Shown here: one piece after another, positions 1 to 56,693 of the stretch
Layout of the letters: the number at the start of each line of letters is the position of its first letter
How positions within the stretch are numbered: position 1 is the first letter of the stretch
Virus record (IMG/VR): IMGVR_UViG_3300012956_000018
Coordinates: 13,091 to 77,090 of that record
Strand: one strand, 5' to 3'
Length of the DNA stretch: 64,000 nt
Origin: a virus
Lineage: Duplodnaviria; Caudoviricetes
Position numbers and translations under genes: made by a program
The notes under the pieces: generated by a model
The model's database searches: none
What the model was told of the DNA's origin: nothing
Seen by the model: only the letters and a program-made list of their open reading frames with translations

Positions 1-541
1 GCAAGGAGAAGAAATATTAAGTGGAGGATCTAATGTTAATCCATTTAACGTATTTCTATTCCAGAATCTTATGGGATATGGAGGGCCATCATCTTTAGGA
101 TCATGTACTGGAGGATCTAGAATTAGTTCTTTCAATGCTATGACCCAAGATGCTCTGGCTCCTCTACTATATGCTACTAAGAAGGATACTATTATGGGAG
201 ATGAGTCCTATGAATGGGATCCTATAGCTCATAAAGTTAGAATAACAGCTCCAGCTGCTGGATCTGTAACTATGAGTCTTGCATATGGCTATAATGGTAT
301 TAGTGATGATATAAGTGATGTACCATTGTTAGGAGTAGCTTATAATTACTTAGATATTGTTGCTAATTTAGTTACTGAAGAATACTTGAAAGATCTCATT
401 ATGTCTAGAGGAACAGTTAGCCTAGCTAGCTCAGATTTTACAATAAACATTGACATAATGAAGGAGAGATATGACGATATTAAAGTCCAGAATAGAGAAA
501 ACTTAGAAAAGATAGTGTCCCCTTATATTTTAATGGCGTAG
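1..541 (+). CDS. Neck/head-tail adaptor-like protein, 5'-truncated by the window edge
   Basis: The frame of ORF 71..541 is open back to the window start. Its position ahead of head-completion/tail genes and its helical C-terminus suggest a T4 gp13-like protein (inference). Confidence 0.45.
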   Translation, partial: QGEEILSGGSNVNPFNVFLFQNLMGYGGPSSLGSCTGGSRISSFNAMTQDALAPLLYATKKDTIMGDESYEWDPIAHKVRITAPAAGSVTMSLAYGYNGISDDISDVPLLGVAYNYLDIVANLVTEEYLKDLIMSRGTVSLASSDFTINIDIMKERYDDIKVQNRENLEKIVSPYILMA

Positions 542-546
542 GATAT

Positions 547-807
547 ATGTTTAAATTTCTTCATCCATCTTCTTTAACTGCTGCAGCTCAGGTAATACTC
601 TCATTAGTATTTATAATAGGATACTTTTGGGTGTTGAATAAGGTATTGAGTGGCGATATTAAAGTCATAGAAGGATATACTGAAGTAGTCTCTGCATTAC
701 TAGGAGTAGTTACTGGTAGTGTGGTTACTATAGTAGCATTTTGGTTTTCTAGATCTAGAGAAACTAAAGTAGTATCAGATTCTACTTCAGAAGATTCTGC
801 CAAGTAA
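547..807 (+). CDS. Small two-TM membrane protein, holin candidate
   Basis: Two hydrophobic segments (AAAQVILSLVFIIGYFWVL; VVSALLGVVTGSVVTIVAFWF) followed by a charged tail; the FWFSRS ending resembles phage holin-like families. Confidence 0.55.
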   Translation: MFKFLHPSSLTAAAQVILSLVFIIGYFWVLNKVLSGDIKVIEGYTEVVSALLGVVTGSVVTIVAFWFSRSRETKVVSDSTSEDSAK

Positions 808-808
808 T

Positions 809-1114
809 ATGCCGAAATTATTATCAGTAATTGAATCTAAGTTATATACTATAAAAGATCTTCGACGTGCTGCATCAAGAGTAGGCGCTACAGTTGAAGA
901 TAATAGCACTAAGTATGAATTAGATTATCAAGTTATGTCGCCTCATGGTAAATTTTGGAAAGATTCGAATAGTGTTCACCTGGCTGTGTATACTTATAAA
1001 AATGATTTAAATCAAGTTAGCAGTACTATACAAGATGCTATAGAAAGAATAGAATTCGGTCTTTATGACCCTGGTAAGGAAGAGTATGAGTATCAAACTG
1101 GAGAGAAATACTGA
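809..1114 (+). CDS. Small hypothetical protein, MPKL family
   Basis: 101-aa ORF starting MPKLLSVIES, tightly packed with its neighbours. Confidence 0.75.
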   Translation: MPKLLSVIESKLYTIKDLRRAASRVGATVEDNSTKYELDYQVMSPHGKFWKDSNSVHLAVYTYKNDLNQVSSTIQDAIERIEFGLYDPGKEEYEYQTGEKY

Positions 1115-1356
1115 TGCCTAAGCTAACTAAATTAGTATCAGAATGTATATCTGAATCTCTACTGCCAAATATTAAATCATCTGTATCTGAAATGAATACG
1201 CTAGGTATTGATTGGGATAGATATACTTTTATATCTACCGACGGAAACAGTATAAAGATATCTATTGATGCAAAGAAACTGGTTAGAGATTATGGTAAAT
1301 TTGGATTCGACTCATACAAAGAACCGAGTGGATTTGTTACTATAGAGATTAATTGA
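1114..1356 (+). CDS. Small hypothetical protein, MPKL family
   Basis: 80-aa ORF starting MPKLTKLVSECISES; TGATG stop/start overlap. Confidence 0.75.
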   Translation: MPKLTKLVSECISESLLPNIKSSVSEMNTLGIDWDRYTFISTDGNSIKISIDAKKLVRDYGKFGFDSYKEPSGFVTIEIN

Positions 1357-1357
1357 T

Positions 1358-1693
1358 ATGCCTAAGCTTATAGATATTTGTGAATCTTTATATTATGATG
1401 TAGCTATATTATATTTTCGTAATCCTTACGATGCTGATAGTGCTGCGTCTATATTACACGGTTCAAAATTACTTAAAGGATCTTTAGTAAAGTTAAATAA
1501 ATCCACGGACAGAATAATATTTAATGATATATCTAGAGATATGTATTTGAAAGCTATACAACTATTATCTGCGAATAATATTCGATTCGATCAAGAGACC
1601 CCAGAAACTAGTGTGCCCGTTGGAACATCAGTTCGTAGTGGGTTCACTAATAATGTTAACAGGGCTCAGTATAAGTATAGAGTTGCTAAATGA
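1358..1693 (+). CDS. Small hypothetical protein, MPKL family
   Basis: 111-aa ORF starting MPKLIDICES. Confidence 0.75.
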   Translation: MPKLIDICESLYYDVAILYFRNPYDADSAASILHGSKLLKGSLVKLNKSTDRIIFNDISRDMYLKAIQLLSANNIRFDQETPETSVPVGTSVRSGFTNNVNRAQYKYRVAK

Positions 1694-1861
1694 AAGTGAT
1701 AAAGTATTCTGAAACGTTCTATAGGGCCGAGGTGCATTCGCACTCTCGATCTTATAGTCACGATAATAAGATACTAAATAGTGACTACATTATCTACTGT
1801 GTGTAAATAGTATAAAATTAATAAGATCTATTACTATAGAGATCAATTAGGAATTATATCT

Positions 1862-2043
1862 ATGCCTAAATTAATAAAACTGGAGTATTTAGTTTTGAAG
1901 TTCAAAGCTTAGGAGGGAGAATAGGAGGTAAGATTGGAGGAGCAGTAGCAGGAAAGACTTATCACAAGTGTCCTCAGTGTGGAGCAGAAGGCCGTGGGCC
2001 GTCTATGCTTAGATGGCATATGAGTAATTGCAAAAAGAAATAG
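1862..2043 (+). pseudogene. Frame-broken MPKL-family ORF carrying a homing-endonuclease-type C-terminal Zn-finger motif
   Basis: ATG1862 reads MPKLIK. A -1 shift at the A4 run (1876-1879) continues TGVFSFEVQSLGGRIGGKIGGAVAGKTYHKCPQCGAEGRGPSMLRWHMSNCKKK to TAG2041-2043. Not in the ORF track. Confidence 0.55.
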
Positions 2044-2048
2044 CTGCT

Positions 2049-2645
2049 ATGGAAAATTTTAAAACAGCTTTCGATAAGACTATGGCTCATGAAGAAGGAT
2101 ATGCAAACGATCCTGATGATTTAGGAGGGGAGACTATCCGTGGTATAGCTAGAGCCTATCATCCTAAGTGGCTAGGATGGGCTAAGATTGATCTTATTAA
2201 GGCTCATGGAAATACTACTGCTGAGCAAATTAATGCTATTGTAAAATCAGATCCTACACTAATTCATTTAATACTAGAATTTTATAGAGATGAGTTTTGG
2301 GATAAGATAAGAGGTGATGAATTACCTCTTGAACTATCTATGGAGATGTTCGATACTGCTGTAAACATGAGTCCATCTAGAGCTATAGAATTTCTTCAAG
2401 AAGGATTAAATCTCAGTAATCGTAATCAAAAAGATTACCCAGATATTCTAGTAGATAGTAAATTAGGACCTACTACTATGAATACATTAAAATTATATCA
2501 AACTAAGTCTCCTAGAGATATTCAGTTTCTTATCAATATAATGAACATCCTTCAAGGATGTTACTATATTAATAGGTATCGTCAGTCTCCTACTCAAGAA
2601 AAGTATCATGGCTGGTTCAATAGGGTAATAATCAAACATGCCTAA
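2049..2645 (+). CDS. Glycoside hydrolase family 108 lysozyme (endolysin) with C-terminal peptidoglycan-binding domain
   Basis: HEEGYANDPDDLGGETIRGI matches the GH108 motif (HEGGYvndP.DpGGeT.yGI); also FDTAVN and a C-terminal GWFNRV. Likely start is MENFKTAF at 2049 (the track gives 2028). Confidence 0.9.
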   Translation: MENFKTAFDKTMAHEEGYANDPDDLGGETIRGIARAYHPKWLGWAKIDLIKAHGNTTAEQINAIVKSDPTLIHLILEFYRDEFWDKIRGDELPLELSMEMFDTAVNMSPSRAIEFLQEGLNLSNRNQKDYPDILVDSKLGPTTMNTLKLYQTKSPRDIQFLINIMNILQGCYYINRYRQSPTQEKYHGWFNRVIIKHA

Positions 2646-2949
2646 ATTAATATCGATTAAAGATAGTATAGAATCTCAATGGCCGAATTTAGTAGCATTT
2701 GTACATGGAGCATTTCAAGCTAATAGCGGTGCTCCTAAATCTAAAGCTATAGATTTCCTAAATAATGAACTAAAGATTAATTCTAATATTAAAAATCTTT
2801 ACGATCTTGCAGATAAGTCTCTTGTTACTATATTCGGTACTATAAGTAATATTAAGATTGCTGGTATGGATGCTGATACCGGAGATAATAGTAGTCAAGG
2901 AAAAATTATTCCTGCATCTGCTATTAGTATACTAGATAATGCGTATTAG
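2638..2949 (+). CDS. Small hypothetical protein, MPKL family
   Basis: 103-aa ORF starting MPKLISIKDSIES. Confidence 0.75.
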   Translation: MPKLISIKDSIESQWPNLVAFVHGAFQANSGAPKSKAIDFLNNELKINSNIKNLYDLADKSLVTIFGTISNIKIAGMDADTGDNSSQGKIIPASAISILDNAY

Positions 2950-2951
2950 AT

Positions 2952-3152
2952 ATGCCTAAGCTTATTTCAGTTAAGGGGATGAAATTAACAGCAAATCGTG
3001 ACAACAATAGCAGATTTATTGCTATTGTATCATCTAAAGAAGAAGCTGCTAGTATTATAGATAATATGGAAGCGAGTGGTACTTGGCCTGAGGGATTTGA
3101 TGCTATTTTAGATAATATATGGCTGTATACTGATAAGTGGGAATCTCTTTGA
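2952..3152 (+). CDS. Small hypothetical protein, MPKL family
   Basis: 66-aa ORF starting MPKLISVKG. Confidence 0.7.
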   Translation: MPKLISVKGMKLTANRDNNSRFIAIVSSKEEAASIIDNMEASGTWPEGFDAILDNIWLYTDKWESL

Positions 3153-3355
3153 TGTCTAAGCTATTAAAACTAGACGGCATAGCTTTGCTGTATTTTACTA
3201 GCTTTGAAAGCTGGTCGGCTAAGGCTATCGAATTAGGCTATGATAGATTAGATAAAGATAAAAACGCTAAAGCTATAAATCCTGATACAGGCGAAATAGT
3301 AGGTGGATGGGACTCTAATTCTAAATTTTGGTGGATAAGAGATAAAGATGCCTAA
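3152..3355 (+). CDS. Small hypothetical protein, MPKL-like (MSKL)
   Basis: The TGATG overlap puts the start at 3152 (MSKLLKLDG) rather than 3137. Confidence 0.65.
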   Translation: MSKLLKLDGIALLYFTSFESWSAKAIELGYDRLDKDKNAKAINPDTGEIVGGWDSNSKFWWIRDKDA

Positions 3356-3581
3356 TCTTATAGATATTATTGAAACTGATGGGTTAGATCTTAATATGAT
3401 AGGCGTAGATAGCGATTTATTTGCTATAAGAATAAATAATATTAAATATAAATATAGACCCATAAATATGTCTCCTCAGGAATTAGCAGTAAAATTTTCA
3501 AAGATGTCAGTATTTAGTAAGGGCAAAGCCCTAGCGTGGTTAAAGAAGAACTCTGAATTAGCAGATAAGTCTGCTATTTGA
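3348..3581 (+). CDS. Small hypothetical protein, MPKL-like (MPNL)
   Basis: 77-aa ORF starting MPNLIDIIET. Confidence 0.7.
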   Translation: MPNLIDIIETDGLDLNMIGVDSDLFAIRINNIKYKYRPINMSPQELAVKFSKMSVFSKGKALAWLKKNSELADKSAI

Positions 3582-3599
3582 TATTTTAGGAGATACACT

Positions 3600-4127
3600 G
3601 TGTTTAATGTAGTAAATATTAAAAGTAAAATGAGAAAAGTAGGTTATACTGAGAAAGTGATAAGATCAGTATGTAGTATACTGGCTCTTGAATCGAATAC
3701 TCGATTACCCCACCACACTATGATTTTGGCATGCAGAAATGCTAGGATTAATGTTGATGAATTTAAGAATAAGATATTAGAATCTGATTTCAAAGTAGGC
3801 GATAAGGTAAGAGTGCCTAAAGATTTATCAGGTGAAGATAGAGATTTAATTGGAACTGTGATTAGTGCTGGGAATGCAGAAGTAAAGGTGCAATTACCTA
3901 CTGGCCAAGGACCGAGTTATCAAATAATTGTTATGGATACTGAAATCAGTAAAGAATCAGTACTAAAAGAAGATCATTTTCAGGTAGATGACAGAGTGAT
4001 GACTAAAGATGGTGATACCGGTAAAGTCACTAGTATTCTTAATTATGGTACTGATGATGAAGTATATATGATAAAGCTGGACAATGGTAGTATTAGAGAC
4101 TATAGACCTAGTGAGTTGGTACTTTAA
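3600..4127 (+). CDS. Head-associated protein with two SH3/KOW-like repeats
   Basis: Internal repeat DFKVGDKVRV...GTV.S / HFQVDDRVMT...GKVTS; GTG start with GGAG upstream. Confidence 0.55.
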   Translation: MFNVVNIKSKMRKVGYTEKVIRSVCSILALESNTRLPHHTMILACRNARINVDEFKNKILESDFKVGDKVRVPKDLSGEDRDLIGTVISAGNAEVKVQLPTGQGPSYQIIVMDTEISKESVLKEDHFQVDDRVMTKDGDTGKVTSILNYGTDDEVYMIKLDNGSIRDYRPSELVL

Positions 4128-4129
4128 CT

Positions 4130-4576
4130 ATGGCAACTATAGCTGAGCTTATTAGTTCTACTAATAGCTTTAAGCCTATACTATTTACTAATGCGAATAG
4201 TGTATATGTAGACCAACTCAATATTACCAGATCCAAGGGTACCAGAACTATTTTATTTACTGCTGTGACTAAAGATAGGCATTCGCCATCAGGAAGAACT
4301 GCTCAAATGCAATTTGTTCTACCTAAGGATGTAAAGATTGAAGATTATAGACCATCTATAAGTAAAGACAGAGTTTTAGTAAGATGTTCTAGTCCGTGGT
4401 ACAAGTACGCATTTGGTTATAATAATGCTAGAATAAAAGCTCAGTTCGGAAGAATTAGCGAATTTACTGTTTTAGGTACAGGGAGACCTGTTAACCCAAA
4501 GAATTATCCTGGATTAGATAAGCATTTAATAGCTATGACTAGAGCTCTTAAAGATGAGAGGTTAATAAGTGGATGA
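4130..4576 (+). CDS. SWIM-like phage protein with degenerate Zn ligands
   Basis: VLVRCSSPWYKYAF...PGLDKHL parallels the V.CxC.dF.Y...G.CKHL pattern. Confidence 0.5.
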   Translation: MATIAELISSTNSFKPILFTNANSVYVDQLNITRSKGTRTILFTAVTKDRHSPSGRTAQMQFVLPKDVKIEDYRPSISKDRVLVRCSSPWYKYAFGYNNARIKAQFGRISEFTVLGTGRPVNPKNYPGLDKHLIAMTRALKDERLISG

Positions 4577-5028
4577 CTGCTCAAGATAAATCTCATGATC
4601 ACTTTGAATGGTTTAGTAAGAGGGCTACTCTTATGAAGTTAGTAGGAGGTAGCGTAGTATCAATTATTCTGGCTACTGTAGCGATAAGCCAGTATTTTAT
4701 TACTAGAGCAGAAGCAGAAGATCAGTTTACTAAAACATCAGATCAAATACTGAAGCAGAGCCAGAGCCTAATTATTTATACTCGTCAGCAGTATTTGATT
4801 TCTGAAAGGAAGAATCTAGTAAATAGAATAGATGATCTTACTAGATGGCTTACTATTATGAATGCGACTCCTAATAATAAGCTATCTTCTACTGAGAAGA
4901 TGCAAATTGAATTCTATACTGATGAAGTATCTAGTAGTAAGAAAAAGATAGATACTATTGACGAAGAACTAGAAAAGTGGAATAGATCTGCTGCTCAACT
5001 AGAAAAGCAGATTAGTGTAGATAGATAA
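4573..5028 (+). CDS. Single-TM coiled-coil membrane protein
   Basis: TM segment LVGGSVVSIILATVAISQYFI followed by a long heptad-rich region. Confidence 0.6.
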   Translation: MTAQDKSHDHFEWFSKRATLMKLVGGSVVSIILATVAISQYFITRAEAEDQFTKTSDQILKQSQSLIIYTRQQYLISERKNLVNRIDDLTRWLTIMNATPNNKLSSTEKMQIEFYTDEVSSSKKKIDTIDEELEKWNRSAAQLEKQISVDR

Positions 5029-5095
5029 CAATACTCAAGATATTTATAGTTAAATGTTCGATTTTATCTGATTAACTTAAATAAGGTATACTAGC

Positions 5096-5623
5096 ATGTT
5101 ATACGGTGAAATTGTATTTGGAAATCCTGGCGTAGCAGTTTCTGGCGAGGCTCTTAGTACTAATTCAGGTGGTGCATCCACCGGAACCATCGATAATCTA
5201 CCAGTAGTTCCTGGTACTGTGGTGATTACTGATGGTACTAATACCTATGCCGATAATGGCCAGGGTGTACTGACTGGAGCTCCAGCTGGTACTGGTACTG
5301 TTAATTACAGCACTGGTGCTGTTACAATCACAGGCGGAGCTGCTACTGGTAATAACGTAGTAGCCTATCAGCGCTTCAGTGCTAACTCAGCTCAGAATCT
5401 ACCTAATTCTGTATCTCCTATGTTTGCTAGCTTTAGAGCTGAAGAGGCAGCTGGTGGTATCATTGTTGAAGTAGGCGAAAGTGGTGCTGATTACCGAGTA
5501 TTCTTCCAGCGTACCTTTGCTGCTTATGAAAATCTGAGTTTAGGACTATTACCTCAGAAGCTGATAAGAGTCTGGTCTTCAGCTAAGGGTCGCCTCAATG
5601 GTGTGATGGCTAACGCTCAGTAA
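5096..5623 (+). CDS. Virion structural (decoration-like) protein with an inserted Gly/Thr-rich beta domain
   Basis: Domain VVPGTVVI..DNGQG...GTVNYSTG is shared with the sheath gene insert. Confidence 0.55.
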   Translation: MLYGEIVFGNPGVAVSGEALSTNSGGASTGTIDNLPVVPGTVVITDGTNTYADNGQGVLTGAPAGTGTVNYSTGAVTITGGAATGNNVVAYQRFSANSAQNLPNSVSPMFASFRAEEAAGGIIVEVGESGADYRVFFQRTFAAYENLSLGLLPQKLIRVWSSAKGRLNGVMANAQ

Positions 5624-5651
5624 TCATTAGCCATAATCACAGAGGTGCAAC

Positions 5652-6338
5652 ATGAAGACTATTGAAATAAGAGATGCCAATTATGTAGTTGGCAAATCAG
5701 GTATGAGACTGTCGGCTAATAACGGAGCAACTGTAGTAGAGTTTTATCAAGGGGATGGTATTCGAATCTCAAATAAAGGAGGTTATCCTGTTATTGAGTT
5801 TAGGGTATCGGGTAAAGATCTTCAAGTCAAAGTGGAAACTAAGGCAGACTTGAAAAATCTGCTTGAACGAGTACACCACGAGACAGAGTTCAAAACTGAA
5901 TCTCTTGATCTTATGGAAGCCATAGCCAGAGATAGTAGAGATCTACCTACTGAGAAGTTGGTAGATGCATTTTCTGAATCTTTTAATCTTGATACAGGTA
6001 GACTTAATACCAGTATTAAAGTTACTAAGAGAGTAGCAGATCTTAATGTAGAATCTAAGGCTAAGCTGTTATCTTCTGCTAAGTGCATATTCTCTGAAGC
6101 TGATGAGTCTGCTCTTGTGTCTATTACTGATGCTGAAGATCAGGATCTTGCTGATGACGATGATAAGGACGAAGACGAAAATAAGCAAGAATCTAGCAGA
6201 CGTAAGATAAAAGAGAATGATGACGAAAATGACGACAATAAGGATGATGTGAAGGAAGATACTGATAAAGACGAAGATGATGACAATAAGGACGATGATA
6301 AAATGGAATCTCGTCGTAAAGTAAGAAAATCTAAGTAA
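5652..6338 (+). CDS. Prohead core/scaffold-like protein with Asp-rich tail
   Basis: Acidic low-complexity D/E/K region, repeated xES motifs and a basic C-terminus; located in the head module. Confidence 0.5.
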   Translation: MKTIEIRDANYVVGKSGMRLSANNGATVVEFYQGDGIRISNKGGYPVIEFRVSGKDLQVKVETKADLKNLLERVHHETEFKTESLDLMEAIARDSRDLPTEKLVDAFSESFNLDTGRLNTSIKVTKRVADLNVESKAKLLSSAKCIFSEADESALVSITDAEDQDLADDDDKDEDENKQESSRRKIKENDDENDDNKDDVKEDTDKDEDDDNKDDDKMESRRKVRKSK

Positions 6339-6423
6339 TTTATTATTTAATATAGTCACGTCGGTTAGGATAACTAGAAATGAGTGGCGGAATTATTTTC
6401 TTTAGATAAAAGCAGCTCTAGAT

Positions 6424-6630
6424 ATGCCATCAGTCTTAGTAAAATCCCTAGCTAAAAAATATTCTAAATCCATTGACGATGTAGAATCTAAGTGGAATAG
6501 AGCTAAAGCTATAGTATCTAATCAGTACGGCAATGTAGATGATCACTACGGAGCAGTAGTATCTATAGTCAAGAAGATGTTGAAAGGCGAATCTGTATTA
6601 ATCGGTATAAAGTATGCCAAGTCCAGTTAG
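6424..6630 (+). CDS. Small conserved myovirus head-module protein (ChaB-like helical fold)
   Basis: MPSVLVKSLAKK..KS..DVE.KW.RAK..V..QYG pattern. Confidence 0.55.
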   Translation: MPSVLVKSLAKKYSKSIDDVESKWNRAKAIVSNQYGNVDDHYGAVVSIVKKMLKGESVLIGIKYAKSS

Positions 6631-7057
6631 AATGTATGTTGAGAGATCGATACCTAGGTTGATAAAATATAGAGATGATTGGATAGATAAATCTGGACAG
6701 ATGGTATCTGTTATTAGGCCTGAGAGTATATCTACGAATGTGTACGGAGATACTACTGTAGTATCCTCTGAAAATATTCATAAAATACCTATGGTCATTA
6801 ATTGGCAAGAATATCGATTACTATTGTCTTTTAGTGATGCTTCAGAAGAAAATAATGTACCACTAGTAGCTATTGTTAGATTAATAGATAACTTGCCTAA
6901 GGGCACATTAGTAAAGATCGAAACATTCAGTGCTGATGCAATAAGTGACGAGAGCTTTCAATGGTTTAGAATAGTGAAGACAAATGCATATCATGAAATA
7001 TTACAACATGGTAAAAGAGTAACTATGGTAGTTCAAAGAGGAGTAACATTTAAATGA
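6614..7057 (+). CDS. Putative head-closure/neck protein
   Basis: Beta-rich 147 aa lying just before the tail-completion and sheath genes; assignment from position only. Confidence 0.4.
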   Translation: MPSPVRMYVERSIPRLIKYRDDWIDKSGQMVSVIRPESISTNVYGDTTVVSSENIHKIPMVINWQEYRLLLSFSDASEENNVPLVAIVRLIDNLPKGTLVKIETFSADAISDESFQWFRIVKTNAYHEILQHGKRVTMVVQRGVTFK

Positions 7058-7350
7058 CGACTACTGTAGCTAGTTTAGGGCCTATGACTACTCAAGCAGT
7101 ATCTTCTAACAAGATAAGGAAAGTAGGATCGAAGATAAATAAGAAAAAGAATAATATACTTGTGTCTACTAAAGAATATGTTTTAGTAGAATATTATAAC
7201 AATGATACAGATATGGAAGTAGTTAGAATAAAAGAAAATGGAGAATTTATTAGAATATCAGAATCTATTAAAAAGATAAAAGATTCTTCAGATGAATTAG
7301 TGAATTCTGCTAGAGTAAAGAAACTTATTGATATGGATACTGTAATGTAA
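7054..7350 (+). CDS. Hypothetical protein
   Basis: 98-aa ORF with ATGA overlap. Confidence 0.6.
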   Translation: MTTTVASLGPMTTQAVSSNKIRKVGSKINKKKNNILVSTKEYVLVEYYNNDTDMEVVRIKENGEFIRISESIKKIKDSSDELVNSARVKKLIDMDTVM

Positions 7351-8024
7351 TGTTAATAGACATAGATACTGCTGTAGTTACTCACGTTGCAGGAATGGTA
7401 GGCAGATTAAATAGTCTAAAGTATCCCTCAACTAGAGTTAAATTAGAATTAGTCGAAGATGAGAATACTCATCTACGATCTATTGAACTAGCTAGTAGAC
7501 AGAATAACCACGAGCCAGATACTGCTACAAGAAGATTTCCTTTTGTAATAGTATATAGAGGAAATTCTGTATCTAGAGTAAACTCGTCATCATCGTCAAA
7601 AGCTGCCATCAGAGATATTGTACTAAGAGAAGATACAATAACTGGCGAAGTAGCTTTAGCTGATGGTAAGCAGATATCTCTGGAATATGTAATATATCAG
7701 TACACCACGTCATTTGCAGAACTTACTGAGTTATTTGAATACTGGGCAGTCAATATCGGAGAACATCATACTGCTATGGATTTTAGATTTTCTGAGTCTC
7801 AACTGAATCCAGTACAGTTTAAAGGCAATATAGTATTCAAAGAGCCAGAATCAGTGAGGCCATCTGTATCAACAATAGAAGATCAAGGTACTGTATATAT
7901 TCAGAAATTCCCATTTACTCTTGATACAATAGTTCTGACAAATGTCAGGGATAGTAATGAATTAATACTCCAAGTACAATCTACTGTCTATGTTCTTAGA
8001 CCCGATGAAGTATTCCCAGTTTAA
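7350..8024 (+). CDS. Putative tail completion/terminator protein (T4 gp15-like)
   Basis: 224 aa immediately upstream of the sheath gene; RFPFVIVYR and FPFTLDT segments are typical of the tail-terminator fold. Confidence 0.5.
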   Translation: MLIDIDTAVVTHVAGMVGRLNSLKYPSTRVKLELVEDENTHLRSIELASRQNNHEPDTATRRFPFVIVYRGNSVSRVNSSSSSKAAIRDIVLREDTITGEVALADGKQISLEYVIYQYTTSFAELTELFEYWAVNIGEHHTAMDFRFSESQLNPVQFKGNIVFKEPESVRPSVSTIEDQGTVYIQKFPFTLDTIVLTNVRDSNELILQVQSTVYVLRPDEVFPV

Positions 8025-8046: not shown

Positions 8047-9876
8047 ATGACTTTAAGCTATCCTGGACTAGAAGTCCTCGAGACTAACTTAGCCCAGCAA
8101 GTTATTGGACCTGCTAATATAGCAGCTGCTGTAGTAGGCGCTTCTAATCGTGGGCGTATTAACGAGAGAATTTTAGTAACAAATACTAAAGAGTTTCTAA
8201 ATAAGTTTGGCAATCCTGATGCTTCTCTTAGTTACATGCATTATGCAGCTCTGCAATACTTGAGGCAGGGCGATGAATTGTATGTTACTAGAGTAGCAAA
8301 TGCTGCATTGCATGGTGGAGTAGTAATTAATGGTACCGGTGGTAGTACTAATTCTTCTGCATTATCTTCTGGCGTAGTAGACCCGTCTACTTTTTCATTT
8401 TCAGGATTTGCTAATGGGGTATTCGCAGTATTCGCAGATAATCCAGGAGCTTGGGGTAATAGTATATCAGTTAGAATAACTAATGTAAATACTGCAGAAC
8501 TAACATTTGATATTCAAGTATATGAAACTGTTAGCGGTTCGTCAATACTAAGAGAAACTTATACTGTATCTAGGCAATTGAAAACCGATGGATTTGGTAG
8601 ACAATTATTCTTAGAGGATAAGATAAATAATAACTCGGATTATATACGAGTAAAGAATAATGCTAATTTATCTAACACAATACTACCAAGACATAATGTA
8701 GTATCTGATGTTATTGGTACTGGTAATGGTACGAATACTAATTTTACTATAACACTATCTCAACCTAACATTGTTCCTGGATCCGTTACTACTTCAGGTG
8801 GAGGAGAATCTTTTACTGATAATTTTGCCGGAGATATGATAGGATCTTCGGGTAGTACTGGTACTATTAATTATATTACTGGATCTATTTCTCTGATATT
8901 TAATACTCCTCCTGCTAACTTAGCGTCTATTACCGCATCATATGAATATGCTATTGTAGGAACATTTACTCAAGCGTCTAATGGCTCTACAATTACAGAT
9001 GCTCAGTTACTTAGCGGGTGGGATCTATATAATAATACTGAGGAAGTGGATGTCAGATTGCTTATTGATCCTGGCTATACTAGCTTAGCCGTAAAGCAGA
9101 GATTGGTACAGATTGCTGAGACTCGTAAAGATTCTCTGGCTATTATTCATGTACCTACCTCAGAACAAGAAGCATCAAGAGCTGTGATATGGAGAAGAAA
9201 CACATCTGGTATAAATAGTACTTATGCTGCTGCTTATACTTCAGACGTATTAGATTATGATCAGTATAACAGTGTCAACCTATATGTTCCAGTGACTGGA
9301 TATGTGGCTGCTCAGTTCGCTAAGAATTTTGAGAATAATACTGCTGGTAGCGTCCCTGCTGGTACTGATACTACTCTTAATGTACAGTCTCTATATCAGA
9401 CTTATGATTCAGGAGATCAGAGTATACTCTATACTAATCAAGTAAATTATATAAGAAGAAAGCCTGGTACTGGATTTTTAGTATGGGGCAACAGAACCCT
9501 GACTAGTCAAGTATCGCCTCTTAATAGAATTAATGTTAGAATGTTGTTAATTATTATTGAGAGAGGTATAAAGGATTCTCTAGATGATGTAATCTTTAAA
9601 CTGAATAATGAATTTACTAGATTACGTGTGTCTCAGAGGATATCTTCATTTCTGCAACAGTTTGCAGATAGTGGAGATTTAGATACTTCTATAGATAATG
9701 GATTCTTCGTTAAATGCGATGAAGATAATAATCCTCCTGCTGTGAGATAAGCTAATAGATTAGTTGTTGATGTTTATGTAAAGCCGACTTCTGCGGCTGA
9801 GTATATTACAGTTAACGTAATACTTACTGATCAAGGTGCTGATTTTAGTGAGTTAGTATCTAGCCGCACTGCTTAA
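8047..9876 (+). CDS. Contractile tail sheath protein (T4 gp18-like); interrupted by an in-frame TAA at 9748-9750
   Basis: N-terminal YPGLEVLE, VGASNRG, FGNP, WGNRTL and RINVRML motifs. The conserved sheath C-terminus (NRLVVDVYVKPTSAAEYI) follows the TAA in frame to TAA9874-9876. Confidence 0.93.
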
Positions 9877-9894
9877 TATTGGAGATAATTTAGT

Positions 9895-10389
9895 ATGATT
9901 ACACTGAATGATGTTCGTGGAGCATCTAATCCATTAAGAAGTTATAATTATGAATTCATCATCCCTACTATTCCAGTAGCTGGTAATACTGATGTAATGA
10001 GAATGCTAGTTACGTCAGCATCTATCCCAGGATTTTCAGTAGATACATTTGAATCTAATCACTTCGGATTTACTTTAAAGCATACAGGTAAGGGAGATTA
10101 TCCTAGAACTGTAGCTATAACCTATGAAGAAAATAACGATCTAACTATATATACTACTCTTAGAGCATGGAGAGAAATTTTATTCAATTCTATTCTAGGG
10201 ACTCAAATAGAAGCTAAGACCGTAGGTATATTAAAATTACTAGATCTTAATAGAAAGACAATCAGTCAAATAACATTTGCTGGTTTATTTCTTCAGTCTG
10301 TTAGTGATGTGCCATTAAGAGGAGACACCTCGTCTGCAGTATCTATATCTGCAACTTTTTCTTATGATATTCATGCAATGACACCATAA
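9895..10389 (+). CDS. Tail tube protein (T4 gp19-like)
   Basis: 164 aa directly after the sheath; SASIPG, LRAW, FP/FL..V.DV.L and V..SATFSYD tube pattern. Confidence 0.85.
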   Translation: MITLNDVRGASNPLRSYNYEFIIPTIPVAGNTDVMRMLVTSASIPGFSVDTFESNHFGFTLKHTGKGDYPRTVAITYEENNDLTIYTTLRAWREILFNSILGTQIEAKTVGILKLLDLNRKTISQITFAGLFLQSVSDVPLRGDTSSAVSISATFSYDIHAMTP

Positions 10390-18832: not shown

Positions 18833-20709
18833 CAGTAAAATTAACTGATCTTCTCCCTGAAATTTATCAGGACGTACCTTGGATAAAGGCATATATTGAA
18901 TCTGCAGAGGAGATAGTATATGATCAAGTAAGAGAGTTATGTAATAAAATTATAGAATTAAGAAGTCCGGATAAAGCTGAGTCTGAATTTCTTGGCAGTT
19001 TGATGAGATTGCTAGGATTCTTTGTTCCATTTGCTCATATTAATGAAATGGACAGACGAAGACTCATAGCTGATTTACCCTTCTTTTATGAGACTTCAGG
19101 AACTAGCTATTTTATAAAGTTCTTATCTTATAATATAGGAGCCAAGGTAGAGATATTTAATCTATATTCTAATAGAACAGCAATTAATCTACCTCTTATA
19201 ATATCATCTGGATCAGCATCTTTTAATAATCTAGCTGGCCCAGCGCCATTTAGTCCAGGATTATCTTCAGTGCCTGAAGGTACTTATAATTCAGAAAACG
19301 ATGTAATATCAAAAGGTATGTTAGGAGATTTAGTATTTTATGCTAATCAGAATTCTTCAGGCAATACTTTAAATGGATCTATAAGAATAACCGGAACATC
19401 ATTTAGACATGTTGATGGCTCTGCAAGAAATATATCATCTCCCTTACAACTGAACACCCAGTATTTCTCTCTAGATGGTAGAATAGGGAAATTTTACTTG
19501 ATGTGGACAGATACTCTGCCTAATACGAGATTTGTGGCGGGTGGAGCTAACTGGTGGATAGATAATAATGGATCTAATATAAATATCATACCAGTTTATT
19601 TTAAAGAATCTACTAGTACTTGGGTAGCTATTCCTGGATCGATACCTGCTGTAGGATTACCGTTTCAAGAAGAAGAGTTTACTCCATTAATTACCGATAT
19701 GATTATTGGAAAAGGAGATAGAATAGGTATTTCTTCTGCAGGAATAACTAATATAATACCGATATTATCATTTAATTCTATATCTACTTCTTCTGAAGTA
19801 TTTACTGATTCAGGAGAATATTATGATTTATTGGTACAGAATTTTAATACTAATATAATTAATTGGAATGACGCCACTACAGGCGCAAATAATTCTACTG
19901 GATTTGATTTTGATTCTAGAAAATTAAAATTAACTCTACTAGATAATACATCAGGTAATCATCCTGAAATAAGATATTCATTTTCTACTATAGTAGGAGC
20001 CGCTTATGTAGTAGAAACTTATATAGCTGAAGGTACTTCATTAAGATTAAATGTGGGGACATCAGCAGGAGGAACTCAGTACGGATCAGTAGATAGAGTA
20101 GTCCAAGCTCATTATGCTAGAATACTATTTACTGCTACATCTGCTACAGCCCACGTAAGTATCTTAATACCGGCATCTGCTACTGTAGATAGATCTACTT
20201 ATGTAGAGCAAATTAGAATATCAAGAGCAGGCAGATTATTTAGTAATCAAGGAGGAGAGGGAGTATTTGACTATATTTCAGGGTATTACAATTTAACATT
20301 CAATACTGCTCCTGTTACTGGAACTCTAGTAAATATCTCCGGTATTACCAGAATTTATCAAAATCTAGTTCCACTATCAGAAATACCCATAGGTCAAGAT
20401 TTAGTAGAAAATGGTGGTAGTTGGTATTTAACTAATCTAGTTGGTGTAGATTACGATATATTAAAATTTCCAAATCTCAAAGCCCTTGCCGATATATTCT
20501 ACAGAATAGCGCCAGCTCCATTGGTATTATTTACTATCCAAACTGGTATAGTAGACAGTACCGAAGTAAATGTAGCATCAGAACTATTTGATATAGAAGT
20601 AATATTAAGTAGTAATTCAGGTCAATCTTATATCATCCCAACATCTGGAAGAATTGGTGCTATTGATGAATCTTATATCGATCAAGTTGCAATTAATGCT
20701 TCAGAATAA
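18829..20709 (+). CDS. Baseplate wedge protein (gp7/gpI-like) with a large inserted beta-rich region
   Basis: N-terminal LLPEIY, L.LLGF and GT..FIKFL; C-terminal FYRIAP; central insertion. Confidence 0.7.
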   Translation: MTVKLTDLLPEIYQDVPWIKAYIESAEEIVYDQVRELCNKIIELRSPDKAESEFLGSLMRLLGFFVPFAHINEMDRRRLIADLPFFYETSGTSYFIKFLSYNIGAKVEIFNLYSNRTAINLPLIISSGSASFNNLAGPAPFSPGLSSVPEGTYNSENDVISKGMLGDLVFYANQNSSGNTLNGSIRITGTSFRHVDGSARNISSPLQLNTQYFSLDGRIGKFYLMWTDTLPNTRFVAGGANWWIDNNGSNINIIPVYFKESTSTWVAIPGSIPAVGLPFQEEEFTPLITDMIIGKGDRIGISSAGITNIIPILSFNSISTSSEVFTDSGEYYDLLVQNFNTNIINWNDATTGANNSTGFDFDSRKLKLTLLDNTSGNHPEIRYSFSTIVGAAYVVETYIAEGTSLRLNVGTSAGGTQYGSVDRVVQAHYARILFTATSATAHVSILIPASATVDRSTYVEQIRISRAGRLFSNQGGEGVFDYISGYYNLTFNTAPVTGTLVNISGITRIYQNLVPLSEIPIGQDLVENGGSWYLTNLVGVDYDILKFPNLKALADIFYRIAPAPLVLFTIQTGIVDSTEVNVASELFDIEVILSSNSGQSYIIPTSGRIGAIDESYIDQVAINASE

Positions 20710-20723
20710 GTAGGTGAGTTCTA

Positions 20724-23700
20724 ATGGCTCAAGTCACTAAGTTATTATTCGCGAATAATGCAGATGTTCAATTAGGAGCAGCAGTAGCCCCTAGTGATAC
20801 TGTAATAGTATTGGCTTCAGGAACCGGATCTAAATTCCCTCTTCCGGGAGCTAATGAAGCATTCATAATTACTATAGAAGATACTATTACTAAAGCATAT
20901 GAAATATGTTTATGTACTAGTAGATCTGGTGATATATGTACTGTTACAAGACATCAGGAAGCTACATCAGCTCAGTCTTGGTCAGCTGTAACAGCAAGAG
21001 TATCTCATAGAGCTACAGCGTTTAGCTACAATTCATTTATCCAGAATCCTAACGGCGATGGTATCGATATATATGCAAATTCTAGTCTAATAGCATCGCA
21101 ATTAGGCCTTAATATTATAGCTGGATCTGGAGTTTCGATTAGTGCAACTAATAATTTAGTAGATAATAGAGTAGATTTAACGATAACATCTCAAGCACTG
21201 ACATCCCCATTTGTTGTATCTGGCACTACTCCTATAGTGAGATTAAATGAAACTGATGGTGGTACAGATGAGAAGAATTGGGATATATATGCTAGTTCTG
21301 AGATATTTAGACTAGCTCTAGTGAATGACGCGGCTGCGATATCTAGTGATTTCTTTAGCGTATCAAGAGTAGGTAATGATATATCTACTATATCTATTAC
21401 TGCTCTAAGTGCTCAAAATACTATATTAAATTTATCAGCAGATACTATTAATGATATTTCTAGTAGTATAAATCTTGGCTTATCTGACGAGACACCTAAT
21501 GGTATTGTATTAATTCAAAATAATCCTGCTGAATTAAGATTTCTTGATGTTGGCGGTACTACTGATAATGACCTATGGAGAATATTCGGGGATAATGCTA
21601 CGCTATCATTATCAGCACTTAGCTCCGACGCCTCAGCATCCAGAAACATATTATCTGCAGTAAGATCTGGAACTGCCTTGACAGCTGTGGAATATGGCAA
21701 CGGTACTGATAATCCTACTCATAGCTTTAATGGAGATATCATTACTAATCTGCTGACCGGCAGAATTCGTAAGTCTGTAAATACTGGTCGTACTGTCTTA
21801 TGTGGCGGCAGTGATTTTAATTCAGCATTTGGAGCAGTATTAGTATTAGAAGGTCAAGATTATGGTGGCTCTGGATTAGGCGGTACTGCGAATTTCATGT
21901 TAAATACAGGTAAGTCATTACGTGTAAATAGTAGTGATGTGTTTACTGTAGCAAATGCTGGTGCATTAATAAATGGATTAACTGCAGATGCCACTCCAAA
22001 TGCAGCTACAGATTATGTAATGACTTATCAGGCTTCTTCTGGTCTAGCTAGAAGAGTACTATTAACTAATCTAGGGTCTGGAGGAGGAGGATCTTATGAT
22101 CCTGCTGCTAATTATACTTTAACAGGTATCAATACTTTTACTCCTCGCTTAAGAATAAATGATACTAGCAGTACTGCTAATAGAAGATTGTATCAAGTAG
22201 TAGCTACTTCAGATACTTTACAAGTTCAGGGTCTACTAGACGACACAAATCCAGATGTTACTTTCTTAGTCTTAGACAGAAATTACTTATCTGGAGGATC
22301 TGCAGCTATAAGAACTACTATTCCTATTAAAGCAGGAACAGTTTCATCTTCTCTGGCATCTCTTAATATTTCATCAGACACTAATTTATCTGTAGTAGGC
22401 ACTTCAGCGGGAGGAATATTAAACTCCATCAGAATACCAGGAGGAGTGTCTCCTACTGCGATACAAAATACTAATATAGTTGGTGAATTAAGATTTTTAG
22501 GTCAATATGATACTACTGCTGGGAATTATGCTTCTGGAGCATCTATTGTATCGGTTGCTACTGAAAATTGGTCTGGTAGCGCTAGAGGTAGTAGAATAGA
22601 TGTTAATGTAATAGGTAATGGCACTACTTCTCTATCTAATATACTCAACATCACATCATCTCAAATATCAGTAAATGGTAACATAAAACAAATCAGTGTA
22701 AACCCACGAATAATACTAGAAGAAACAGGAGCAGGATCCGATCTTACTACGTGGGATATGCACTTAGATGCTGGAGTGTTGAGTCTTAGAACAAGAACGG
22801 ATGCTGATGCTGCAGGCAGGGATATTTTAATTATTACAAGAGGAGCCACTACTGCAGTTTCTGCTATTCAGTATGGTAATCCTACTGATGATCCTACTCA
22901 TACATTCTATGGCCCTATTATACCAACAGGTAGCGACGGTATTATAAGGCATAATAATAATAGTGAACGTACTATAATATCTGGTGGCTTGACTACTGCT
23001 AATACTTCTGGTGCTGTTATTGAGTTAGAAGGTATTGACTACAGTGGCTCTGGAGCTGGCGGTAATTTACGCATCTCTCTGAATACTGGAAAGAATGCAT
23101 ATATTAACGGTAGTATTGTACTTCACGAAGGTAATATCAGCACCGTAGGAGCCGTCCCAGCTACCAGAACTATATCTTCAGGTACTGGACTGACTGGAGG
23201 AGGAGATTTATCTGCTAATCGTACTATCTCAATAGTAACTAATGCTATTACTAATTCTTTAATAAGACAGTCTTCGGGTCTCAGCGTAATAGGTAGATCA
23301 ACTAATAGTACTGGAGATGTTGCTGATATAATAGCAACAGCTGATGGAGATATTTTACGAAGATCTGGAACTACTCTAGGATTCGGATCTATCTCAGCTA
23401 CTTCTATAGGATCTGGGGTATTGGCTATTGCTAGAGGGGGTACTGGCTTAGGTTCGTATGCTCAAGGCGACATTATTTATGCCAGTGCTGCCAACACTCT
23501 ATCATCTTTAGCTAGAGATACTAATGCTACTAGATATCTATCTAATACAGGAACTTCAAATAATCCAGCATGGGCTCAAGTTAACTTAGTCAATGGAGTT
23601 ACTGGTAATTTATCTGTTACTAATTTAAATTCTGGGACGTCAGCATCTTCTTCCACTTTCTGGAGAGGAGACGGTACATGGGCTATTCCGTCAGGAGCAT

Positions 23701-50001: not shown

Positions 50002-51072
50002 TTAAACCGGGCCAAACTCAAACGGTTGACTAACAATATTCACTCTTATGTCTTTAGTTATCTCTGAATTTAATAATTTTAAATAGCTATCTGTTGACTT
50101 GCCTAAGTATTCTTTATTATTTATTGTTGCTTGATATCCATTTCTAGGCCTACCTGTTCCTATTAGATTCTTAGTCTTAAAATATTTATAGAATTCACAC
50201 AATGAATGCTCAATACATCTCTTAGTAAGATAAGGTAATTGAAGATATTGAAATGTAATGTAAGGAAATCCTATAGTATTTTTATTATAATAATCAAATT
50301 GATGTTCAAATAAATGATTTAATATATTTATATACTTATCATAAGTATTACTTGATGGTCCTGGGCTGATGATATCTAGTGCATATGAGCATCCTGGTCC
50401 TATATTTACAAAACTATCCTCATCGAATTGTTTTAATATACTTGTATATATTAAATCACAGAATATTTCGTATGCTACAAAATCTCCAATACCTGGAGCG
50501 CACCCCTTAATTATATCAAACGCCTCCTTACCAGTATTAGTATTACGTAATTTATTTACGTAAGATTCTCTATTCTTGTGAGTCTCCAAAAATCCTTTCA
50601 TAAATCTGTTAGATTTACTATCTTTAGCATAGTATGGTATTCCTGGGTAGTCGTCCACCTTCCAAGATTTAATGCTATTGACCATATGCGCATTAGTGAA
50701 TAATCCCATTTTCTGCTCTTGATCGTATAACAGATGCTGGAGATAGTCTATTACTTCTGGTGTATTGTTGTCATTTAGAATATTAAATGCTGGCTTTATA
50801 GATTCTAGAGTTTCTATTTTATTATAGAATCTGTGAAATACTATTAATAAGAATTTTGTATTATCATCTTGTATCTTGGATAGTATTTCATTGTGAAGAT
50901 ATAAAGATCCTCTATCTAACATTCTATATACATTTGTGAATTTAAAATTCAGAAATATATCATCATTAGTCCAGGGAGGATTTTGTTTAAGTATATATCT
51001 CTTATACCATATTAGATGCCGATCATATATAAATTGCCAAAATTCATCTGCCCTCTGTTCATTCAGCATCAT
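50002..51072 (-). CDS. 5-hmdU DNA kinase-like (aGPT-Pplase family) helical protein
   Basis: FW.FIYDRHLIWYKR....PPWT.D.IF..FKFTNVYR.LDRG, GIGDFVAYEI.CDL, GPG and IEHSLCEF.KY. Confidence 0.82.
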   Translation of the reverse strand: MMLNEQRADEFWQFIYDRHLIWYKRYILKQNPPWTNDDIFLNFKFTNVYRMLDRGSLYLHNEILSKIQDDNTKFLLIVFHRFYNKIETLESIKPAFNILNDNNTPEVIDYLQHLLYDQEQKMGLFTNAHMVNSIKSWKVDDYPGIPYYAKDSKSNRFMKGFLETHKNRESYVNKLRNTNTGKEAFDIIKGCAPGIGDFVAYEIFCDLIYTSILKQFDEDSFVNIGPGCSYALDIISPGPSSNTYDKYINILNHLFEHQFDYYNKNTIGFPYITFQYLQLPYLTKRCIEHSLCEFYKYFKTKNLIGTGRPRNGYQATINNKEYLGKSTDSYLKLLNSEITKDIRVNIVSQPFEFGPV

Positions 51073-52117
51073 TTACCAATCCTTGTAAATTCATTATCAA
51101 AGATTCTGGATATTCGAATGTATTTAACAAGTTTTTCATATTATTATTGAAGTGATCGTCTTTAGTTTTAGTAAGTATCCAACCGAACGTAGAATTCAAT
51201 TTAGGCCTTATTTTAATATTATCATTAAATGAAGATATTTTCTTACTAAGATCTTTGTCGTATGAATATGGAAATTGATCTTTATTATTAACAATATCTG
51301 CTATTTCATAAATAACATTTAAATCATCTAATAAAACATGTAATGGTGAATGTTCGAAGCTAGGCTCAGTTGGATTATCAGATCTAGCAAGTTTATAATT
51401 GCAATTTCTGATCTTCTGAGCTCTGTCAAAATGTCTATCATAAATATGAAGACTTGTTCTATGTGTTACTAGTGAGCCTATCTTCATTCCTAAAGATCCT
51501 GCCATTATATCAAGTAACATAGACCATTCAAATTGATTTATCATGTCTCCCCATATAAGATCATTACTTCTGATACTTACATGAAGATATAAATATCCAT
51601 TCCTATGAATAAAGTGCAGCCAATTATTACATGGGATATCTTTTGTTTTCCCCATAGCATTTACGTCTTTTACTGGGTCCCATATAGTTATAACTGCTTG
51701 CCTTGTATTAGGATCTTTTGATAATGTGTTATATATAAACTGTAACTGATCTATACTATGCACCACACCAGATTCTTCGCACCCTGTAGCATGTCTAAGC
51801 CGCCCACCATACCCAGCTCTCCAATTAAGGCCATTATCACTGAAATCACTAGCTCTAGGTAAGTAGTGAGATAGCCATCCAATATCTCTTTTCCCTACCA
51901 ATACCCATAATGTCTCAGCAAGCAGCGCATATATATTATGTTTTCTTTCGAAATTTAAAGAATATCTATGCTTTGGATAATTTATTATTGATGTGGTAAA
52001 TAATAATTCTTTAGTATTACCAATAATATTACCATCTTCTAAGACACATTCACATGCTAGTGATAGCCACTCATCATATGTATTTTCATGAATAGCGGTA
52101 GAATTACTTATTTCCAT
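51059..52117 (-). CDS. Thymidylate synthase homologue, probably dUMP hydroxymethylase
   Basis: GYGGRL, DPNTRQAV..IWDP, DIPCNN (catalytic Cys), RSNDLIWGDMIN with Asn at the position equivalent to E. coli ThyA N177. Confidence 0.82.
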   Translation of the reverse strand: MEISNSTAIHENTYDEWLSLACECVLEDGNIIGNTKELLFTTSIINYPKHRYSLNFERKHNIYALLAETLWVLVGKRDIGWLSHYLPRASDFSDNGLNWRAGYGGRLRHATGCEESGVVHSIDQLQFIYNTLSKDPNTRQAVITIWDPVKDVNAMGKTKDIPCNNWLHFIHRNGYLYLHVSIRSNDLIWGDMINQFEWSMLLDIMAGSLGMKIGSLVTHRTSLHIYDRHFDRAQKIRNCNYKLARSDNPTEPSFEHSPLHVLLDDLNVIYEIADIVNNKDQFPYSYDKDLSKKISSFNDNIKIRPKLNSTFGWILTKTKDDHFNNNMKNLLNTFEYPESLIMNLQGLVNDAE

Positions 52118-52713
52118 AACTGCCTATCTAATAATGTGTAGTATAATCTATTTACTCTTTCTTCTATACTAGGTACTTTAATATTAAGACTGTCTTTAGG
52201 AGTATAGTATCTATATGAATCTGTATATTTATCTAATAAGCTATCTAGAATATATTGATATCCCATATGCCAAGAATCATTTAATACTCGTTTACCATTG
52301 TCTAGTCTCATCAACTCTGATGAGTAGTCATATTTTACTACAAAATCTACTGAACATAAATTAGCTATTGATATATCAAATAATTCTTTATTTAATTCAA
52401 CATCATGATTCCATGCTGAACATTGTATTATATAGTATACATATGAATCAATACTCAATCTGTCAGTAACCCATGGTCCAGGAGTTTCACTCATGATGGT
52501 AAATCTATCTTTAATCAAGGATTCATGAAATTTTATTCCTTCTCTAGGATAGTTTACACAATACCTTAATATATCATAGTGATTATATAGACTGTGTTCT
52601 TTCATATACCTAGAAGTAGGTATTTCTAAGTAGTTTATACCAAACTTGTCAGCAAATGCCTTAGCTACAGAGGTCTTCCCTGATGCAGCTGGCCCTGTAA
52701 TACCTATCTTCAT
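52108..52713 (-). CDS. P-loop nucleotide monophosphate kinase
   Basis: ITGPAASGKTS, VTDRLSIDSYVY and RLDNGKR. Confidence 0.8.
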   Translation of the reverse strand: MKIGITGPAASGKTSVAKAFADKFGINYLEIPTSRYMKEHSLYNHYDILRYCVNYPREGIKFHESLIKDRFTIMSETPGPWVTDRLSIDSYVYYIIQCSAWNHDVELNKELFDISIANLCSVDFVVKYDYSSELMRLDNGKRVLNDSWHMGYQYILDSLLDKYTDSYRYYTPKDSLNIKVPSIEERVNRLYYTLLDRQLWK

Positions 52714-55538: not shown

Positions 55539-55756
55539 AACTTATTACCTAAAATTCTCCATAGCTTATTACCATGTTCTTTTCTTCCTTCTATTTCTAT
55601 ATTATGCTTCTTTAGTAACTTATATAAATGAGATCTATTAATTTTAAGTTGCTTAGATACTGCCACTATTACCCATTTATTATGGTTACAGACTTCAATT
55701 AAATACTCTCTAGTCTGTTTATATATAAATTCTTTATAAGGAAGAAATTCAGACAT
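55535..55756 (-). CDS. Fis-like HTH protein
   Basis: REYLIEV...N.W.I..VSKQLKINRSHLYKLLKKH matches the Fis/NtrC HTH; likely start MSEFLP at 55756. Confidence 0.75.
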   Translation of the reverse strand: MSEFLPYKEFIYKQTREYLIEVCNHNKWVIVAVSKQLKINRSHLYKLLKKHNIEIEGRKEHGNKLWRILGNKL

Positions 55757-56621: not shown

Positions 56622-56654
56622 ACAAATCTCTTAAATCTTATAGCGTTGTAATAA

Positions 56655-56693
56655 TGGGCCTCGGGCCTTGCCCGGCCTTATGTTAAGAAGCGC
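56655..56693. repeat. 39-bp GC-rich direct repeat, copy 2
   Basis: Identical to 42243-42281; overlaps the stop codon of the GT at 56683. Confidence 0.95.

Follow-up and report, generated by a model that had tools for sequence, protein, structure and literature searches.

We analysed a 64,000-nucleotide (nt) window, bases 13091–77090 of the linear, 77,090-bp IMG/VR virus record IMGVR_UViG_3300012956_000018 (G+C content 33%, estimated completeness of the record 70%), which carries near its start an array of small open reading frames (ORFs) whose products begin with a common peptide. Eight co-directional ORFs between positions 809 and 3581 start with M-[PS]-[KN]-L, and the start reported in the initial annotation was confirmed for each of them: MPKLLSVIES (809), MPKLTKLVSECISES (1114), MPKLIDICES (1358), MPKLIKLE (1862), MPKLISIKDSIES (2638), MPKLISVKG (2952), MSKLLKL (3152) and MPNLIDIIET (3348). 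We refer to this peptide as the leader and name the genes by their start positions. The array lies on the plus strand between two conserved late genes encoding a 271-aa (o271) and a 148-aa (o148) protein, downstream of the head genes and not beside the protease gene. Between the homologues of o271 and o148, related contigs carry no gene (L012), one gene (L010) or five genes (L045), compared with 12 here; the slot that holds the array is variable.

A leaderless two-helix membrane protein of 86 aa (547–807), holin-like by inference from its sequence, opens the inserted block. It is followed by three leader genes, p809 (809–1114; 101 aa, MPKLLSVIE-S, predicted mature protein of 92 aa), p1114 (1114–1356; 80 aa, MPKLTKLVSECISE-S) and p1358 (1358–1693; 111 aa, MPKLIDICE-S, with a basic predicted mature part of pI 9.6), and then by a 168-nt non-coding gap (1694–1861; fold z −2.4) that splits the array. 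After the gap come a broken leader gene (1862–2043) and a leaderless endolysin recognized by its GH108 and PG_binding_3 domain matches (2049–2645), which is embedded in the array. Four further leader genes follow: p2638 (2638–2949; 103 aa, MPKLISIKDSIE-S), whose start overlaps the endolysin stop (ATGCCTAA), p2952 (2952–3152; 66 aa, MPKLISVKG..., early Glu site absent), p3152 (3152–3355; 67 aa, MSKLLKL..., with a body like a polyprotein module) and p3348 (3348–3581; 77 aa, MPNLIDIIE-T, basic predicted mature part of pI 9.6). A terminator-like hairpin with a T-run (3559–3585) closes the array ahead of a gene for a 175-aa protein (at 3600). All seven full leader ORFs, encoding 66–111 aa, have a positive codon-usage score only in their own frame and are real genes. 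The ORF at 1862, counted initially as an eighth member, does start with the leader but comprises only 16 aa in the assembly (MPKLIKLEYLVLKFKA, 1862–1912), and the coding signal moves to the −1 frame. There, a stretch without a start codon (1870–2043) has a positive coding score and encodes a basic C2HC zinc-finger-like peptide (weak zf-C2H2 match, E 0.0066, below the cut-off). The A4 run at 1876–1879 is the likely slip or indel site and would fit programmed slippage, a pseudogene or an indel introduced during assembly.

The leader is longer than first noted and reads M-P-K-L-[IL]-x-[ILV]. No other ORF above 51 aa in the whole 77,090-bp record starts with M[PS][KN]L. Presence of the motif on replication genes had been named beforehand as evidence against a dedicated signal; it was found on none of the genes of the minus-strand replication and nucleotide block. 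A six-frame search with M.[KN]L[ILT].[ILV] returned 11 matches, namely the eight ORF starts, one copy inside a protease polyprotein and two out-of-frame scraps. Within codons 2–7, conservation was 0.89 at second and 0.61 at third codon positions, compared with 0.51 in the 15 nt upstream. Position 20 (codon 7, middle base) is an invariant T with variable neighbours, and all nine copies carry a hydrophobic residue at positions 4 (Leu) and 7 (Ile/Val/Leu). Because second positions are conserved, third positions come near the level of the upstream DNA and the middle T of codon 7 is invariant, this codon-structured conservation is the signature of selection on the peptide and not on DNA or RNA. The earlier claim that only the peptide is conserved thus holds for codon positions, with the reservation that some pairs are also close in DNA (1358 and 3348 are 87% identical over 30 nt).

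Typically, a hydrophobic residue, any residue and Glu, followed by Ser or Thr, come within 2–7 residues after the leader. Five leaders have such a site at residues 9–14 (VIE-S, ISE-S, ICE-S, SIE-S and IIE-T, the hyphen preceding Ser or Thr). The leader end originally described as xES was therefore present in four cases and as IET in one, but absent or badly placed in three. The dipeptide E[ST] occurs within residues 5–20 in six of seven leader proteins and in eight of 84 other proteins (Fisher 3e-5, post hoc).

Behind the leader, the proteins are as dissimilar as had been described, with a z score of at most 2.6 in pairwise local alignments of their bodies. Searches of the leader proteins against Pfam and PHROG at lax thresholds gave nothing above noise. 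Neither p1358 nor p809 has a relative among 5.8 billion proteins, and the best score for p1358 in the ESM Atlas (0.82) is within noise.

Just upstream of the window, the record encodes a Gp23 capsid protein and a 1399-aa Peptidase_S77 protein (L005:1066–5265); structural genes, among them those for tail sheath, tubes, and baseplate hub and lysozyme, continue on the plus strand to ~30 kb. The first ~200 residues of the 1399-aa protein match Peptidase_S77 (PF03420, the T4 gp21 family) with 27.1 bits at a cut-off of 27. A phmmer search of the PDB with the protease domain alone gave no match, and gp21 was found only by a profile built from four relatives, which matches the T4 gp21 structure 5JBL at E 3.9e-6. 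Ser148 (GVSxRG) and His91 (DxHP) are invariant in the four relatives. The capsid protein corresponds to Pfam Gp23 (PF07068, E 2.7e-26). With both a gp21-family protease and a Gp23 capsid protein, the phage belongs, distantly, to the lineage that shares T4-type head assembly. The closest relatives of its capsid protein on long contigs share only ~53% identity, and a search for near-identical DNA in cultured phages found none.

Beyond the protease domain, the 1399-aa polyprotein consists of four copies of a ~55-aa module, three SH3/KOW-like modules, a His-rich part and an acidic linker, and it ends in a helical part that resembles a scaffold. Relatives conserve this C-terminal part in polyproteins of 633–1098 aa with other inserts. 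In residues 196–1125, Ser or Ala follows 36% of Glu residues versus 15% elsewhere (p 1.4e-4). Sites of the type hydrophobic-(x)-E-S/A are 3.5-fold enriched in the same region and sit at module borders (207, 266, 323/328, 387, 535, 593, 655 and 710/717). The ends of five of the eight leaders resemble the site logo predicted from these boundaries. The capsid propeptide carries LVTE-S, DVIE-T and LNE-A, and capsid relatives retain [IL]xE-G and xE-[SAG] at aligned positions. As T4 gp23 structures did not align with the propeptide, the presumed capsid maturation site is derived from relatives only.

The ninth leader copy, MRKLISIESELSQ (MRKLISIES), lies at Met1111 of the polyprotein and opens its scaffold-like part. 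Its DNA, ATGCGTAAGCTGATTTCTATAGAATCT (ATGCGTAAGCTGATTTC...), is close to that of the array leaders; the relative L012 has LRVIMSKEA at the aligned place. Translation could also begin internally at the in-frame Met1111, in the way of nested protease/scaffold genes. Nested or fused protease–scaffold genes are known from the lambda C/Nu3 and P2 gpO type, which likewise combine an N-terminal protease and a C-terminal helical scaffold-like part in one reading frame. The polyprotein described here differs in being far longer, with the four module copies and the three SH3/KOW-like modules in between.

A second link between array and polyprotein is provided by p3152, whose body aligns with the ~55-aa module and appears to be a free copy of it. 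When all 220 ORFs of the genome were searched with a profile of the four modules, p3152 was the best non-self match (E 0.0015), and none of 2000 shuffles reached its score. Among 1.84 billion representatives, the profile found only seven other proteins. One is encoded on a T4-like contig (L042:4848–5177), where a gene for a 109-aa module protein lies between Peptidase_S77 and a T4_CASP scaffold gene (gp22-type), just before Gp23; this protein has a VME-S site immediately ahead of the module. Others are multi-module proteins of large uncultured phages (L034, L035, L037 and L038; P0028–P0034) that start with MK[ST][FIL]x[EQ][IL][RK], and one starts with MFKKIGIIEQE. Two more large ORFs of L037 have such a start, and these N-termini resemble the T4 capsid-targeting sequence (CTS) MKTYQEFIAE (PMC8442874). 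In an AlphaFold2 (AF2) model of p3152, the predicted local distance difference test score was 84 overall and only 56 for residues 1–10. As these first ten residues alone are of low confidence, the leader is modelled as an appendage to the fold. A Foldseek search of the PDB with this model gave no match with E below 0.3. In a comparison with the SH3/KOW-like modules of the polyprotein, the 175-aa protein behind the array was the best non-self match, at a non-significant E of 0.14.

On balance, we favour a reading in which M-P-K-L-[IL]-x-[ILV] is a capsid-targeting and processing propeptide of the T4 CTS kind with a new sequence. Late in infection, the tagged small proteins would bind via the leader to the assembling prohead core, which would be built by the 1399-aa protease–scaffold polyprotein, with a scaffold-like part that opens with the same peptide. 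After closure of the gp23-type shell, the gp21-type serine protease would cut behind the leader Glu. The leader would be lost and proteins of 60–100 residues would remain in the head with the DNA, while the array itself appears to grow by the leader moving onto new bodies. Core binding, cleavage, packaging and later ejection are all inferred steps. The initial proposal of a T4-like targeting propeptide cut after Glu is partly supported, in that it fits everything that could be tested in silico, from protease, capsid and sites to the scaffold copy and the module.

In T4, the internal proteins have only a CTS of 10–19 aa in common, in which residues 4 and 7 serve targeting and residues 8 and 10 serve processing, and gp21 cleaves after L/I-X-E (PMC9026906). 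T-even phages encode more than 30 unrelated internal-protein variants in variable loci (PMC3012670, PMC2839356), and the T4 CTS is able to package foreign proteins (PMC9026906, PMC3012670, PMC2839356, PMC7697877). The array agrees with this system in several respects. A short N-terminal peptide is the only thing that small unrelated proteins have in common, the tagged genes occupy a locus whose content differs among related phages, and a gp21-family protease and a gp23-family shell are encoded in the same genome. Hydrophobic residues occupy positions 4 and 7 of the leader, and five leaders have a Glu at 9–14. However, P1' is Ser or Thr here and Ala in T4, and the protease is fused into a cargo/scaffold polyprotein with its own leader copy. 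The leader would thus probably work like a CTS without being a member of the T4 CTS family by sequence. It was initially called a new targeting signal; the sequence is new, but the principle is that of T4.

Propeptides with a comparable fate are known from phiKZ-like giant phages, in which inner-head and ejection proteins (SPN3US gp53/gp54, phiKZ gp93) carry long N-terminal propeptides (PMC5694885). These likewise direct proteins to the head, where a gp21-related protease subsequently cuts them off after Glu (A/S-x-E), and paralogues have identical N-termini and diverged bodies (PMC5694885). In contrast to the 9–14 residues on unrelated small ORFs described here, they are mostly longer than 100 residues and belong to paralogous or large proteins.

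Several observations weigh against a CTS-like propeptide. A well-placed Glu site is missing in three of eight leaders: p2952 has its first Glu only at residue 30, the FES of p3152 falls within the homologous module, and the 1862 leader has LE-Y instead of Glu-Ser/Thr. The E[ST] statistic is post hoc, and the homology of p3152 to the module is modest (12.6 bits). By inspection, the leader and MKTYQEFIAE are not similar in sequence and have only the pattern in common (hydrophobic residues at positions 4 and 7, Glu at 9–10). Five of seven predicted mature leader proteins are acidic (pI 4.7–5.5), unlike the highly basic T4 internal proteins (PMC8442874), and the array is interleaved with lysis genes, again in contrast to T4. 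The leader array is absent from all relatives found: a search of IMG/VR and JGI metagenomes for MPKL-start loci, with the flanking proteins (271 aa, sheath, 148 aa) as anchors, gave none, as loci were distant or absent, and a degenerate leader DNA pattern matched 20 loci in IMG/VR, all of them single, chance-like matches and not arrays. Finally, the phage, and with it the leader system, is known solely from a metagenome contig.

Among other explanations, the leader might be a generic tag for virion assembly or for protease substrates that does not lead to the capsid interior, so that its carriers dock elsewhere (neck, tail or outer capsid) or are marked for activation or removal by the head protease and not packaged. 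The location of the array away from the protease, between conserved late genes of no assigned role downstream of the head genes, is in line with such a tag, as are the mostly acidic products. However, the sole other leader copy stands where the scaffold-like part of the prohead protease polyprotein begins, one cargo body recurs as a module in this polyprotein and in a T4-like head-core operon, and the gp21-type protease works inside the prohead (PMC9026906). We therefore consider a tag for other destinations unlikely.

The first ~30 nt could also be a recombination patch that captures or duplicates ORFs, which would make the peptide a functionless by-product of cassette shuffling. Besides the 1358/3348 pair mentioned above, the leaders at 1358 and 2952 are 94% identical over 16 nt, and a 24-nt repeat lies ahead of two leader starts (1331–1354 versus 1825–1848, 88%; the second copy within the 168-nt gap). 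These DNA-close leader pairs and the repeat indicate that ORFs were duplicated or captured by way of the leader, in the manner proposed for the internal-protein loci of T-even phages (PMC2839356). The variable gene number in the slot adds to this, and short homology patches suffice for cassette exchange in T4-type phages (PMC2839356). Yet variation among the leaders is mostly synonymous, and the hydrophobic residues at positions 4, 5 and 7 are kept via different codons, which a DNA patch would not need. Conservation begins exactly at the ATG, and the Glu-Ser/Thr site then follows at variable distance. Shuffling is, moreover, compatible with function, as the T-even loci show, and a role in shuffling alone seems to us quite improbable.

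A 31-nt direct repeat (81%; 762–792 versus 1125–1155, same frame) joins TKVVSDSTSE, in the C-terminal tail of the 86-aa membrane protein, to TKLVSECISE, in the extended leader of p1114. Common N-termini also occur elsewhere among the relatives. L045, whose capsid protein is 54% identical, has three or four ORFs starting MRTYRRSRTERLRRSR.LRREA (L045:6891, 13154, 17401 and 19074); these share a conserved upstream element, 'agagagagagagaca', and two are also paralogous in their bodies. In L013, a 197-kb relative, five paralogues around the S77 protease gene (L013:12385–14424 and 19423–20839) share a ~40-residue N-terminal region, KY..YIEAL.DKDV.KK.KSFKKVN...PTF.NV. We rejected both leader families as clean parallels to the array, as they are paralogue families, one of them with conserved upstream DNA.

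Conservation could alternatively act at the RNA level, with AUGCCUAAR-YUN-AU serving as a translational operator for a RegA-like repressor or as an enhancer of initiation or re-initiation for coupled genes that lack a Shine–Dalgarno (SD) sequence. Indeed, an SD-like sequence is missing in seven of eight leader genes, and their starts abut or overlap preceding stops (TGATG, TAATATG, ATGCCTAA). By the same crude test, however, ~60% of all genes in the phage lack an SD-like motif. Third codon positions are free and second positions fixed, the polyprotein copy does not stand at a gene start, and a scan of positions 1–8000 gave no Rfam match. An RNA signal is thus very unlikely. A tRNA scan was empty, sigma-70-like sites occurred at chance level, and the T4 late promoter TATAAATA was not enriched in the window (27 found versus 22.6 expected).

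The leader proteins might also be a diverged paralogue family, with the N-terminal strand as the best-conserved part of one fold. All products are small, several read as strand–helix after the leader, and the first 25 residues of p809 align with the start of the scaffold part (E 0.017). Past the leader, however, this last similarity is marginal (p ~0.035), the bodies show no pairwise similarity, p3152 has distinct, leaderless homologues of its own, and the leader is the only low-confidence part of its model; common descent of the bodies is therefore highly improbable. Least credible of all is a recognition sequence for a modifying enzyme, in the logic of ribosomally synthesized and post-translationally modified peptides: no radical-SAM or other peptide-modifying enzyme lies beside the array, next to which a membrane protein, an endolysin and an SH3-like-repeat protein are encoded (annotation does not cover every gene of the record, and the enzyme could be distant), and the bodies, as folded domains, are unlike short core peptides. 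None of these alternatives accounts at once for the scaffold copy, the site logo and the link through the module.

A bolder form of the CTS-like reading, which we put forward only tentatively, is that the leader represents the peptide by which the scaffold itself assembles. Cargo would mimic MRKLISIES and co-assemble with the scaffold, the same domains would enter the head by two routes, as polyprotein segments or as tagged free genes, and at least some cargo would be ejected to shield DNA carrying 5-hydroxymethyluracil (hmU) glycans. If true, scaffold mimicry would explain in concrete terms how CTS-type targeting works, a point not yet defined for T4. Tag, scaffold and polyprotein modules are linked in a single genome, which makes the binding partner of the leader directly testable (leader versus scaffold N-terminus). 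If a CTS-like role is correct, CTS-type cargo loading would be no peculiarity of T-even phages but a portable principle re-invented by distant phages of the gp21/gp23 type.

T4-type internal proteins are ejected with the DNA, and some counter host defences, as IPI does against GmrSD. The initial annotation had predicted DNA hypermodification genes at 50–60 kb, and an hmU-kinase/glycosyltransferase module was found at 50–59 kb. On the minus strand at 50002–59167, a 5-hydroxymethyldeoxyuridine (5-hmdU) DNA kinase (PF18723, E 3.6e-47) is accompanied by a thymidylate-synthase homologue, a YfbR-like nucleotidase, two GT4 glycosyltransferases, an epimerase, a methyltransferase and a WbqC-like protein, which likely constitute a thymidine hypermodification pathway. 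The initial proposal that the leader proteins are injected as effectors that protect hmU-type modified DNA is speculative and found no support here. The idea of protection derives solely from the presence of the 5-hmdU DNA kinase, the thymidylate-synthase homologue and the glycosyltransferases; the bodies of the leader proteins show no similarity to known anti-restriction proteins. If the leader does act as a CTS-like tag, the seven orphan proteins would probably be first-wave proteins delivered with the hypermodified genome, and they would provide a short candidate list for new counter-defence functions, together with a new short tag for packaging foreign proteins.

Two further features of the structural region were observed. 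A 144-nt gap follows the sheath ORF at 9750–9895 of the window. Ahead of the window by 1.4–2.2 kb (L005:10844–11686, genome coordinates), a 280-aa protein consists of ~11 tandem repeats of ~25 residues, every one of which bears [LI]xE (NLSE, NLTE, SIAE, NITE and so on). From its sequence, this protein could be a head-protease substrate with multiple cleavage sites or, alternatively, a decoration protein.

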